Shown: in pieces, positions 4,753-46,363 of the stretch
Layout: every line of letters begins with the position of its first letter
How positions within the stretch are numbered: the first letter of the stretch is position 1
Source: Balanoglossus misakiensis
Taxonomy: Eukaryota > Animalia > Hemichordata
Assembly: GCA_040954595.2 (NCBI GenBank)
Contig: CM082580.2
Location: 13,938,242-14,002,241 of the forward strand
Direction of reading: 5' to 3'
Length of the DNA stretch: 64,000 bases
Notes under the pieces: model-generated
The model's database searches: none
What the model was told of the DNA's origin: nothing
What the model saw: only the letters and a program-made list of their open reading frames with translations
Made by a program: the position numbers and the translations under genes

Positions 4753-7046
4753 CTAGTTTCCATGGAGACGAAGTTTACGATAGATCGAGAGCAGTGGTAT
4801 GAGTTTTTCGTACGTCAACGCGACATCATTTGGGTCCATTGTCCTCTTCTTCTCTGCAAACAACGAGTTTATTCTATTTTTATCCTGAAAAAAAACACAC
4901 AAAGCAACATGTTTATCTGGGTATGTTTAGTAAGAATAATAAAATGGCCAACCCTCAGATACAGACACATGTGCGTGCCTACACAATAAGGCACATGTAT
5001 GACGCATGAACACATTCGCTCACGGGGCACTATGTTGTCCAAAAACAGGTTCCAAAAGTGACACAAATACTGGAGGCATTCAATAGCTAAATGTTTCTGT
5101 GTAAATTCACATGGGTATGGCATGAAGTACATTGCTAATAGGATGATATTTCTTCACCGCCAGGAGAATGATTATTTCAGTCAAATTTCCATAAGGGCGA
5201 CTCACGACCTCTGTTTGTGATGTTGATATCACATTTATCTCTGATTGCCATTCCCTTGTGAAAGCCAGTCTTCTCTCAATCATGCAGATTCTTGCTCTCC
5301 GCCATTACATGATGCGCAGTTCCTCAGGCGCTGAACATAGGACACACTTTCACTTGGCCATTTGTGAAGATATTTCTCCCAGAGACAGAAAACTTCCTCC
5401 TTAATTTCCTTATAATGGATTTTGTTAATTCCGATAGCCATTAATGCCCCATTTGTCTTAAGGTCGGACAAGAATTCCTCGAATTTCAGAGTAAGGGGAT
5501 CCCTTTCTGAGATTGTTATAATCGGTTTAAGTGGCACAGTTCGCAGGCACAGACAGCGCGGAGGGTGACGGTTGAGGCACATTTGTGAAATGAGGTCGTT
5601 GGGGAAACGTGTGTGTGTGTGTGTGGGCGTGTGTGTGTGTGTATGTGAATTTCTTTATGGAGATGAACGCCACCTTGATAGATTAAAATATTTTAGGTTT
5701 TTCTTTAACCATCCAGAATCGTGCTGAGTGCAAATATGCGAAAACTAATCTTTTCCTATGGATAGAGCCATTAAAGCAACGGTTAAAAGGCCTTTTTCTT
5801 ATTCTGTGGACTTGTCCACTGCTTTGATCGCCAGTGTAGTCTGTTTCAAACGCTGTGAGGACGGTTGCACATTTGTGCTGAAATGACGCCGCTTGATATG
5901 TTCGTAGGTCGATACGCTCAGTGCGACTAATGGTTTCGACGCTCCTAGGTGATTGAACAGAAGCGCTTGGAGGACTATATGAAAACGGGCTTTTGCGGAC
6001 GCTAAATTGTGGCAAGGCAGAAATGACAAAAACAATTTGTCCAAAGTACATCAACGGCAGAGACATCATTAAAATTTCACGTGAACAATCTCTTTCTACA
6101 AATCAGGCACTTAAACCAGGGCTGTTCATGTTGACCTTTTTGCGACCCGTAGGTTTATATACACTCCAGCAAAATCAACATTGTCAGTGAAAATATCTGT
6201 CCATCGAAATTCCCATGTAATAATATTTACTTTTAAAATCACACATTTATGCACTCCATAGACCGCCATATTTGGTTGAAATCTGACCAGCTGTTCTTGA
6301 GATATCAGAGAGAGAGAGAGAGAGAGAGAGAGAGAGAGAGAGAGAGAGAGAGAGAGAGAGAGAGAGAGAGAGAGAGAGAGAGAGAGAGAGAGAGACAGAC
6401 AGACAGACAGACACTGTAGCGTGGGGACACTTTGATGTTGTTTGTACGTGATCATTCACCAATTTTTCAGAATGCTGTTCAAGTAAACACTAGCCCACTC
6501 AACACATTCTGAGGAAAAGTCAGTTTATAAATGATCCGCGGCAAATGAAGTGGGAGAAATTTCTATGGCATATCTCCTTTTACACAGAGCATTCTGTATA
6601 GCCATCAAAACTGACAATGTGTTTTGCACATCATATATATAAGACATGTAAAGAAAATGCACTGAATCCCTGGTTGCCTACATTCATAACAACTGCAGAA
6701 AATAATTCAGGCAATATGTACTGCCAATGATCCTTCAGGGTATAAAGTTCACAGTATGCCCGTGGATTAAGTGCCTTGGGTATACTCTGTGGCGTTTGAG
6801 AAGTGTGATTTAATATAACATTATGTCCTTCATTAAGGTGGTGCATACTGCTTGAAGTTGTTGATAATATAGAATACTCACACCAAATTCATATGAGGAT
6901 TGCACATCGAGATCATTGTCATCACTTTCTCCAGGGAAGTCTTCAAGAAAGACGTCCTTCCTCGTGTGAATCGTCCTGGCACGGGTCGCTCTCGGTATCC
7001 ATAGTGACAACAGGCTCAAATACAATAGGAAGAAAGTCTTTTTCAT
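4753..7046 (-). CDS. Secreted prepropeptide A1 (98 aa), unknown peptide family; coding exons 7046-6882 and 4884-4753
   Basis: MKKTFFLLYLSLLSLWIPRATRARTIHTRKDVFLEDFPGESDDNDLDVQSSYEFG|DKNRINSLFAEKKR-TMDPNDVALTYEKLIPLLSIYRKLRLHGN*. Signal-like N-terminus, acidic pro-region, KKR site; canonical gtgagt donor and ttttttttcag acceptor in phase 0. Exon sizes (165 and 132 nt) equal those of paralog A2. Confidence 0.85.
5609..5646. repeat. (GT)n microsatellite
   Basis: Interrupted gtgtgt run visible in the sequence. Confidence 0.85.
6307..6412. repeat. (GA)n microsatellite grading into (GACA)n
   Basis: Direct read; explains the SLSLSL ORFs at 6126-6462. Confidence 0.97.
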
Positions 7047-7257
7047 CTTCTAGAAATAATCTACAAAAGCAAAAGAGTTGGCATGATAAAATCTCGTAGG
7101 CAGATGATGAGTTCTATTTGAAATACGTCGGGGAAGTGTGTGCATGTTTGTTTGAAGAAGTCATTTCATTGGAGGAAATGAGGTCATGTTCATAACAATC
7201 GTTCATGCAGAAAAATAATGGTCATTATTGTTGACAGAGTGGTAAATGTTGATTTCA

Positions 7258-7440
7258 TTTTTAGCTCCACTGTCAGCGATGGAGAGATTTATTTATCAGA
7301 TATGTTGATTGTCCATCGGCGTCCGGTGTCCTGTGTCTGACACCACTTTTCTGATTACTTTGAAATTTGGTTTGCAGGTTCCTTGGGGTGACCAAGAGAA
7401 GTTTGTTCAAATTGTGGTGAAATGTGCCTATTTTATGCCT
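7258..7440 (+). mobile_element. Possible fragment of a HINE/Helentron-associated-type interspersed repeat
   Basis: Starts ttttagctcc in a T-run, followed by degenerate gtcc/gtct repeats and ttgaaatttgg...gtgacc. This style is typical of such elements in marine invertebrates; family not verified. Confidence 0.3.
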
Positions 7441-43879: not shown

Positions 43880-46228
43880 CCCGTCGTGAGTTTATTTTTC
43901 AGAAATCTGTAAAATAACAAAAGGGGGGACAAAAATTAAAGAGGGGTCACGTTTTACGGGAAAGCACAGAAAAACGACAGATGCCTAAATATTCAATCAT
44001 GCTGCGGATTGCCACGTGACAAAATTGGCACATTGCAGTTCAGAAGACTCTCTCAAGGAGCAGTTGAATAGAGTGAGGGAATTATGTGACGACGAGATGT
44101 GATTTTTTGCTGATTATATCCTAAAACATCTCATTGTCAAGTCAGGAGAAAGCTTAGAATGTTTCAGTAAGTATATCACTATGTGAAGATTCGTTTGCCG
44201 AGGAAATAGGTAGAAATCCTGATTAATGGTCATCCGTATTTGACGATGACGTCACTGGAGTATAAACCGATGACACCTAATGAAGGAACATCAAGATTGT
44301 CTCGTGAATTTTGTATGACACTTAAGAAGTAGAAAATTGGCTTCAAACACTATATGAGAGGATGCATATTTCCCTGATCTAAAAAACTCAAAATGTAAAT
44401 CAGTTAATGACAACTTCATAAATTCGTGGTTTACAGTTTTAAAGGAATATTTCATATTTCGCGAAAACTTGGTTATTAATGTTATCCTAGATTTTAGATG
44501 TCTCTTGTCCAGGAGGTTAGTGTTCGAAGATAGATTAGGGATTAACAGAAACATGTTAACACGTTAAAAGAACAAGCAAATTCTTGGTTACAAAATGATC
44601 GAACTTAATGAACATTTTGGAAATCAAAATGGCCGAGTTTGGTCTTTGATAACAACCTCAGCCATGCTTCGTTGGTTATTTCATGAAAGCTGCTCCCATC
44701 CGTACAAATGCATGGACACTAAATCGGCTCAAGTGCGTTAACCTTTATTCGGCGGCAAAGTAGCAATCATAAGAAGAGAATGAAATGTCAAGACATCCTA
44801 AGAAGAAAAAGTGAAAATAATGTTTGGTACAAGTAATGACGTAAGCTCTTGTGACTGCACTTTTATTTGATGATTTGGTGACAGGATTACTTGTCCAGTG
44901 ACGCATGTGGTGTTGCTGTCAAAAAGTACTTTGTGATACTACAGAGGAATAGTCCAAAAGGGCGCAATATGTCAATCAAAAATATGTACATGTACATGTA
45001 TGTATGTATGTATGTCTGCATGCGTGTGAGTGAGTGTGCGCGTGCGTTCAAATAGTTTTCTATACTACTGAATGAAAGGTGAAATATTATCTCACAGACT
45101 GCTGCCGTCAATTGTGCTCCTTCTCAAATCACCCAAACCTCCTCCCCACAATAATCAAGTACTTGCTTATCAGCAATGTAGGTGAGCCCTCTATCTCGCA
45201 TCAAAAGTGACGGGTGATCTTCCAATGCCAGATAACGAGAGAGGACGCTGTTTAACCGGAATAGTTGAAAATGCTAAACTCTCCTGTATTAAATGTGGTC
45301 AGACATACATACAGTCATGACATCATAAAAGGGTTTGTCGTATATCGCAGCAATGAAACATTGTATCCGTATCTGATGTTTAAAGGCGTCTATGTTATGT
45401 ACAGCTGCATGGCCATTTGTTTCCGAGTTCCGTTTACAAACAACAGATACATGTATATTGTTTATATGCATAGAAATGCCCAAGTCTTCGAGTATGGGCC
45501 TTTAAGTAATAAATTTGAATTCTCGGTTTTGTAAACCTTGTGAATGGCAGTTTCCCCTGCAAGTGGTGCATATTGCGAACAATGGTGTTGGTGGTGATTC
45601 CAAATTGACTGTTTCAGCTGTCGTACTTCCAGGAGGCGAATGACATCCAAAAATGTTCCGAGATTCGTGCAATGTGGTGAATAATTATCGAACTGATAAT
45701 AATCTTCCTTCATTCTCTGACAGGCAAACATTAAAGGGAGCGCGTGTCTAACAAACCACGAAGAAGCCTAGAGGGGACCTAACAATAAGGAAATTGAAAC
45801 TGCAGAACTATAAGACAACGGAAATGATGTTGTATTGTAGTCTTATCTCCACAATTGTTCAGTCTGTAAGGGACTTGACAACCTTCTTATCGTACAGTCT
45901 CGCTTTCGAACATTTTCTAACCTTTATGCAACTTCTTCCAATCTAAAGACGTGTTTGCAGATATTGAAACAGACAAGAAGAGGCTGGGCACAAGCATTGC
46001 CCATTCAAAATGTACGTCGCAGAAGAATAATTGCAAAGCTGCAGCAAAGTTATGTTGTGTGTTCCAAGCCATCGTAGCACGGAACGTACGCCTGAATTAA
46101 ACATCTATACTTAGCTGTTGAGAAATGAATGTCTTGACGTCCAATCACACATAGCATTAAATGTGTTAACCTGCCTCATCGCAAAAAAAAAAAATTAAAA
46201 TGAAGTACAATGTTTTGTTTTTCCTTAC

Positions 46229-46363
46229 CTTCAGGAAATTGTGTGAATAAACGTCAAGAGATATGTCGTTTTCCAAACGGCGCCAAGCAAAGTAATGCGA
46301 GTCCCTTTGTCAGAGATCAGAGGACCTGGTTGATGTGAAACCCAAGGAGCAGTCCCTATTATA
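46229..46363 (-). promoter_or_regulatory. Predicted non-coding first exon and TATA-like promoter of gene B2
   Basis: Donor AAG|GTAAGG at 46229/46228; TATAATAG at 46363-46356. TATA-to-donor distance is ~134 nt versus ~138 nt in B1, and caaggagc lies next to the TATA in both. An acceptor lies 27 nt upstream of the ATG (exon starts 43906). Confidence 0.5.

Follow-up and report, generated by a model that had tools for sequence, protein, structure and literature searches.

On the minus strand of a 64,000-nucleotide (nt) stretch of the Balanoglossus misakiensis genome (assembly GCA_040954595.2, contig CM082580.2, positions 13,938,242 to 14,002,241; hereafter the window), we find four intact prepropeptide genes, A1, B1, A2 and B2, which form two families without detectable homology to each other and stand in A-B-A-B order. 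The genes probably represent two undescribed enteropneust prohormone families that give mostly non-amidated signalling peptides. The precursor design is ordinary and the families are new, being set apart from named families by searches and by published descriptions. The coding exons, with peptide lengths in amino acids (aa), dibasic sites written as KR, and the evidence in brackets, are as follows; one orthologue, from the acorn worm Ptychodera flava, is included in that evidence.

4753..4884, minus strand: A1 last coding exon; a KKR site followed by a predicted helical peptide of 29 aa (4842-4756) that has neither Cys nor an amidation signal (translation, structure model)
6882..7046, minus strand: A1 first coding exon, preceded by an acceptor at 7060; encodes the signal peptide and the acidic pro-region (splice sites, open reading frame join, blind scan)
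18654..18803, minus strand: B1 last coding exon; completes peptide 1 (GPPxM) and encodes KR, a short spacer, KR and a 27-aa peptide with predicted helix and Cys-x5-Cys (18737-18657) (translation, orthologue, structure model)
20725..20880, minus strand: B1 first coding exon, preceded by an acceptor at 20903; encodes the signal peptide, the acidic spacer, the first KR and the start of peptide 1 (matched by the P. flava orthologue)
35586..35717, minus strand: A2 last coding exon; a KR site followed by a predicted peptide of 28 aa (35672-35589) (translation)
36885..37049, minus strand: A2 first coding exon, preceded by an acceptor at 37062; encodes the signal peptide and the pro-region (splice sites, open reading frame join, blind scan)
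42888..43058, minus strand: B2 last coding exon; completes peptide 1 (GPPxM) and encodes two KR sites and a 31-aa acidic peptide with Cys-x4-Cys (42983-42891) (translation, P. flava tblastn)
43721..43879, minus strand: B2 first coding exon, preceded by an acceptor at 43906; encodes the signal peptide, the acidic spacer and the first KR (blind scan, P. flava tblastn)

An earlier, sequence-only reading had proposed four co-oriented genes, and at all four coding junctions the GT donor and AG acceptor were found on the bases it had given; the phase (0 in all), the exon sizes and the ATG-acceptor distances also matched. The two coding exons measured 165 + 132 nt in A1, 156 + 150 nt in B1, 165 + 132 nt in A2 and 159 + 171 nt in B2, encoding precursors of 98, 101, 98 and 109 aa, and the acceptor-to-ATG distance was 14, 23, 13 and 27 nt, respectively. 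The signal peptides, judged by hydropathy only, reached 2.2-3.4 over the best 11 residues in the four precursors, and the dibasic sites included one KR common to A1 and A2 and three common to B1, B2 and the P. flava protein. Both strands of the window were then scanned blindly for an acceptor, an ATG, a hydrophobic stretch and a donor. The scan returned three candidates, every one within the four genes (B1 failed the scan filters). Run on 60 control windows from an order-5 Markov model, the same scan averaged 0.17 candidates, none of which combined phase 0 with 5 or more acidic residues. The proposed division into two paralogue families was borne out by z values of 19.6 for A1/A2 and 36.6 for B1/B2 (0/1000 shuffles each), and a family profile search through six frames of the window revealed no further intact A or B copies. 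Between the families, the last exons gave z values of -1.0 to 1.4 and a profile-profile probability of 0.15%, and likeness was limited to the signal peptides of A1 and B1. The net charge of the C-terminal peptides was +1 or +2 in A, +1 in B1, -5 in B2 and +1 in P. flava. These results support the view that the cluster consists of real, selected prepropeptide genes.

An exhaustive profile search with the four last exons (A and B mixed) among 1.84 billion representatives returned 1 match (E 5e-10), namely XP_070566472.1 / XP_070566473.1, a 119-aa 'uncharacterized protein' of P. flava. By tblastn this protein landed on both coding exons of B1 and of B2, which provides an independent check of the B exon pairing. 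The cluster had been called hidden, which was overstated for B, whose orthologue is already a RefSeq model, though unnamed. Identity to the P. flava protein was 70% for B1 (71/101 aligned residues) and 50% for B2; because B1 is the closer of the two, B was probably duplicated before the P. flava line split off. In the regional counts, B1 matched the P. flava protein at 16/25 residues in the signal peptide, 14/21 in the acidic spacer, 14/21 in peptide 1, 5/7 in the short spacer and 22/27 in the C-terminal peptide. The C-terminal peptide was thus 81% identical, compared with 75% for the neighbouring alpha-amylase and 30/46 for signal plus spacer. The P. flava B1 orthologue and the P. flava amylase orthologue lie on equally long contigs, which suggests that they share a chromosome.

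Three KR sites, the GPPxM end of peptide 1 and two Cys near the C-terminus were common to B1, B2 and the P. flava protein. The B intron is in phase 0, lies mid-precursor and falls inside peptide 1, which is 19-36 aa long (19 in B1, 36 in P. flava) and changes size at the exon junction. The C-terminal peptide (27-31 aa) was predicted to be helical, with a predicted local distance difference test (pLDDT) value of 62.6 in a low-depth model, and carries a Cys-x4/5-Cys loop. The P. flava protein ends in Gly-Lys, a predicted amidation signal that B1 and B2 do not have.

Between B1 and A2, a 30-nt stretch at 28630-28665 (minus strand) resembles the B2 spacer between the last two KR sites (24/30 nt). 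This score was reached by 2/200 codon shuffles, the profile hidden Markov model gave E 0.04, and the likeness was gone with a 3-sequence profile. About 140 nt downstream, at 28324-28489 (minus strand), some 165 nt align to intron 1 of A1 (8208-8374, minus strand; score 82). The stretches within 28324-28665 are possibly a remnant of a third B-A unit, or a repeat.

The A peptide was predicted to be helical (pLDDT 78.4, low-depth model), and both A peptides combine an amphipathic character (hydrophobic moment 0.53-0.63) with a basic tail. The A junctions are predicted from the sequence, and the A1 donor was weak in matrix scoring (1.0). Downstream of the coding region, the first AATAAA, at 3789 and 34624, lay 964 nt past the A1 stop and 962 nt past the A2 stop, and an ATTAAA lay 841 and 839 nt past the respective stops. 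The 3' untranslated regions gave no convincing alignment (the A1/A2 score was reached by 9/200 shuffles and the B1/B2 score by 70/100). An AG run occupies 6307-6411, inside an A1 intron.

The sequence-only reading had also predicted an upstream non-coding exon with a TATA box for each gene. The predicted elements are listed below.

12803..13100, minus strand: A1 predicted TATA box (13100) and non-coding first exon, donor at 12803 (donor and TATA prediction)
13130..13242, minus strand: A1 promoter block common to A2, with inverted CCAAT box and octamer motif (13161-13168) (paralogue alignment)
25962..26101, minus strand: B1 predicted TATA box and non-coding first exon, donor at 25962; 47-nt block from the TATA box common to B2 (prediction, alignment)
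37928..38322, minus strand: A2 promoter block with the octamer at 38236-38243, a TATA box at 38195, and a predicted non-coding first exon, donor at 37928 (prediction, alignment)
46229..46363, minus strand: B2 predicted TATA-like site and non-coding first exon, donor at 46229 (prediction, alignment)

The best upstream donors were those at 12803, 25962, 37928 and 46229, with 1 or 2 sites over threshold per interval. They lay 297 (A1), 139 (B1), 267 (A2) and 134 nt (B2) below TATA-like sites, in regions conserved between paralogues, in agreement with the prediction. About 110 nt above the TATA box were alike in A1 and A2 (score 50 vs 22 +/- 3, 0/500 shuffles), and 47 nt starting at the TATA box, i.e., the core promoter, were alike in B1 and B2 (score 38 vs 21 +/- 3, 0/500 shuffles); the regions compared were those picked by the donors, and the shuffles preserve nothing but base composition. 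By eye, the A first exons could also be aligned at their 3' ends. These blocks are conserved though synonymous sites are near saturation, which argues for working promoters. No promoter block common to A and B was found. The octamer motif binds POU factors, and octamer sites are present in immune and epithelial promoters too; the motif does not discriminate nerve, endocrine and immune cells. Across the window the octamer was not enriched (11 vs 6.9 expected), so that only its conserved position counts. A palindromic cyclic AMP response element (CRE), one copy of which lies about 85 nt above the B1 TATA box, was rejected as promoter evidence: 10 occur in the window vs 1.1 expected, 9/10 of them inside the cluster (P = 0.09), and the same 8-mer recurs in starfish cDNAs. 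The excess is likely a genome-wide bias.

The genes, which the sequence-only reading could not assign to a known family, had no match to a named family in the searches made. Neither the eight exons nor the P. flava protein had a Pfam match above cut-off, with HMMER filters that drop weak matches and models biased to arthropods and vertebrates. A likeness to isopropylmalate synthase was rejected, as the best E in a PDB sequence search (0.069) is at chance level and the matching Pfam score was below cut-off. Fold searches of two small models gave 0 Foldseek matches and a best Z of 2.9 among 48,161 chains. Three metagenome loci that appeared as B candidates were stop-flanked frames in GC-rich contigs and were taken as chance. 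In a language-model search with the P. flava protein, 8 of the 10 best matches were peptide-hormone precursors, spread over 7 Pfam families and all scoring below 0.9, with DH31 and PDF precursors on top (0.84-0.87); no antimicrobial or toxin cluster was named among these 10. The B2 exon scored only 0.76. As a lead only, the P. flava protein appears to look like a precursor in general and like no particular family.

In the literature, the window motifs and the two P. flava accessions had no full-text mention, where sequences are printed as figures and the two main hemichordate neuropeptide inventories were beyond reach, and no such cluster appeared in topic searches. The window motifs were also not found in the supplements of PMC6188537 and PMC9793003 (6 motifs; 7 crinoid files of the latter), and in the accessible part of the S. 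californicum single-cell marker table (PMC13554239) no unnamed gene is numbered beside Ftcd.

Comparison with described families pointed the same way. Calcitonin-type peptides have an N-terminal disulfide ring and an amidated C-terminal Pro, whereas the B ring is C-terminal and the A peptide has no Cys. For the other types, the comparison refers to the available portions of the papers cited. Somatostatin/allatostatin-C genes resemble B in having a phase-0 intron, which in B sits mid-precursor within peptide 1, and one C-terminal Cys pair after a dibasic site, but carry, in a loop of 6-15 residues, an FXP or FWK/IWK core (PMC7536072), whereas the B loops span 5, 4 and 5 residues without either core. 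The B2 loop has a Phe, without Pro two residues on, and the conserved part of B is, unlike in the somatostatin type, the helix before the loop, plus an extra conserved peptide upstream. Echinoderm bombesin-type peptides (consensus RIFGPXXa) resemble B peptide 1 in having Gly-Pro near the C-terminus of a basic peptide split by an intron (PMC12002301). They differ in standing directly after the signal peptide, in amidation and in a phase-1 intron, whereas B peptide 1 follows a 21-residue acidic spacer, has a phase-0 intron and ends in all three B precursors with Met before KR, leaving no amidation Gly. The defining features of the somatostatin and bombesin types are thus absent. Starfish CRH has 41 aa, is amidated and has basic sites around it (PMC4772807), whereas the A peptides are shorter (28-29 aa), run to the stop codon and carry no amidation signal. 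Unassigned echinoderm precursors (Arnp11-25, Ovnp26/27, crinoid PCNP1-20) are alike in kind, with about 100 aa, a signal peptide, an acidic spacer, dibasic sites and no known family (PMC4772807, PMC5627052, PMC9793003). By description they are unlike A and B, having six to nine Cys, RGW or GW ends and amidation, and Arnp15b, 18 and 21, as given in the available supplement of PMC4772807, showed no likeness to A or B by eye.

We propose that each gene would be transcribed from its TATA promoter through the non-coding first exon, and that a POU factor may drive both A genes, as hinted by the common octamer. The signal peptide would direct the precursor into the secretory pathway, where prohormone convertases would cut at KR and a carboxypeptidase would trim the basic residues. 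The A precursor would yield one 28-29-aa non-amidated helical peptide, and the B precursor a basic 19-36-aa peptide with a fixed GPPxM end plus a helix of 27-31 aa that ends in a small disulfide loop. Release would be from acorn-worm nerve or endocrine cells, and the peptides would act on G-protein-coupled receptors. Duplication of the A-B pair as one block probably preceded the divergence of the P. flava line, B1 being closer than B2 to the P. flava protein. A C-terminal motif that stays fixed while the N-terminus varies, together with a conserved near-neutral helix, would fit a receptor ligand better than a membrane-lytic peptide; typical lytic peptides are cationic, unlike these C-terminal peptides. 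The regional comparison of nonsynonymous and synonymous change (dN/dS) that had been proposed also speaks for this reading: between paralogues, nonsynonymous differences (pN) were 0.36-0.53 in every region and synonymous differences (pS) 0.69-0.99, so that all precursor regions are constrained, although pS is so near saturation that dN/dS is poorly estimable. Of the processing machinery, PC2, glutaminyl cyclase and PAM are expressed in Saccoglossus kowalevskii, according to the accessible part of PMC10508912.

Several results weigh against two families of signalling peptides. The peptides after the KR sites had been claimed to be the most conserved part of the precursors. This held for A1/A2 (14/28 identical vs 10/45 in the pro-region; Fisher P = 0.02), but not for B1/B2, in which conservation was flat across regions (11/27 vs 23/46, P = 0.48), and between B1 and P. 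flava the C-terminal excess was a trend that did not reach significance (22/27 vs 30/46, P = 0.18). The orthologue sample comprises one for B and zero for A. No A relative was found in a word-index protein search with the last-exon alignment, in the exhaustive mixed A + B profile search or in a metagenome scan, a blank of little weight, since the word-index tool also failed to find the real B orthologue and the exhaustive profile mixed A and B. The A1 signal peptide is short and followed by a basic stretch. Since no Gly stands before any KR, the window peptides are predicted to be free acids, with amidation foreseen only at the P. flava C-terminus. B peptide 1 is basic (+2, +5, +8), Arg/Pro-rich and length-variable, and would fit a defence peptide too. 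Lastly, of the duplicated module that the sequence-only reading had proposed, the A-B-A-B order of two families stood, but one joint system was left unsupported, because no shared sequence or promoter block was found between A and B.

Among other explanations, it is rather unlikely that the genes encode defence peptides, antimicrobial or hormone-like deterrents, acting in skin mucus or immune cells like the products of clustered frog skin peptide genes. The tandem arrangement would agree with such a role, as would the acidic pro-region with KR, which is generally known from many antimicrobial precursors, the charge, composition and variable length of B peptide 1, the amphipathic A peptides with their basic tail, and the octamer, given its occurrence in immune and epithelial promoters. 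The hemichordate epidermis is, moreover, described as highly secretory in the available part of PMC13554239. The pipid frog skin cluster shares tandem prepropeptide genes and conserved promoter motifs above the TATA box (PMC3731216, accessible text), but holds 13-15 genes of one cck-derived family and diversifies in spacer and mature peptide, with purifying selection in signal and cleavage sites. Here, by contrast, there are two families with only two old copies each, the C-terminal peptides have net charges of -5 to +2, and the C-terminal mature peptides are conserved as much as or more than the signal (pairwise counts, mature vs signal: A1/A2 14/28 vs 8/24; B1/P. flava 22/27 vs 16/25; B1/B2 11/27 vs 13/25). 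The absence of antimicrobial clusters among the best 10 language-model matches also speaks against defence. It is quite unlikely that the peptides are released outside as gamete or spawning cues or pheromones, or that A and B peptides form the two chains of one ligand, an arrangement that would account for the A-B-A-B order. Two unrelated families do alternate, both C-terminal peptides are predicted helices, and one language-model match (score 0.87) is a chordate Frey family protein, a family that we take to be testis-expressed. However, the order needs only one tandem duplication of two neighbours, no promoter block common to A and B was found, and the A peptides have no Cys for an interchain bond.

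That one or both families are very diverged members of a known bilaterian family, with B a somatostatin/allatostatin-C or A a CRH-, PDF- or PTH-like helical ligand, is improbable. The intron phase and C-terminal Cys pair of B (shared with the genes described in PMC7536072, as noted above), the 28-29-aa predicted helices of A and the DH31 and PDF matches at the top of the language-model search agree with it. Against this, B lacks the core motifs and has too short a loop, A lacks an amidation signal, no Pfam match exceeded the cut-off, and the language-model matches spread over 7 families. An even more speculative idea, which we hold to be very improbable, is that B peptide 1 is the missing invertebrate relative of apelin or neurotensin, vertebrate non-amidated ligands that it may resemble; no Pfam match pointed to them, and a topic search brought up no paper on the likeness. 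It is extremely improbable that the cluster includes decayed or mis-joined genes without a peptide product, the A pair being the likeliest candidates. The failure to find an A relative and the weak A1 donor would fit decay, but both A frames are intact and of equal length with synonymous sites near saturation, their promoter is conserved, and the word-index search that was blank for A also missed the real B orthologue.

Two undescribed prohormone families thus remain the preferred reading. A broader version is tentative, though conceivable: A and B would be two ancient signalling families that have no recognisable relatives beyond the acorn worms and whose joint action would be the reason for their staying side by side and being duplicated together, with A driven by a POU factor and B supplying orphan receptors with two different ligands, the free-acid GPPxM peptide and the peptide of helix plus loop. 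Hemichordates sit between echinoderms and chordates, and their neuropeptides were mostly found through similarity to known families. Lists of unassigned precursors, such as Arnp, Ovnp and PCNP, abound in this region of the tree, and B is already an unnamed database model. The two A peptides and the two peptides per B precursor are synthesizable candidate ligands for orphan hemichordate receptors, and in situ and reporter work could start from the conserved C-terminal peptide of B and from the octamer in the A promoters.

The cluster is flanked by genes for alpha-amylase, a zf-CW/PWWP/ARID protein and formimidoyltransferase-cyclodeaminase (FTCD). The alpha-amylase gene lies at 127-1704 (plus strand), with its 3' three quarters within one exon. 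Its product was 75% identical to that of P. flava, 74% to that of S. kowalevskii and 73% to that of Glandiceps talaboti, and at most 56% identical to the listed matches outside acorn worms. In a tree of 15 amylases it fell in a clade with the orthologues of these three species (100/100), its position inside the clade being unsettled. The amylase thus marks the window as acorn-worm DNA, from a species distant from all three. The zf-CW, PWWP and ARID exons (about 47500-51620, minus strand) share one orientation and likely form one chromatin-reader gene, and the FTCD exons occupy 62755-63883 (minus strand). A 680-nt ATAC microsatellite was found at 40583-41261. At 2708-3117, a 59-nt inverted repeat pair, 95% alike, suggests a small non-autonomous transposon.

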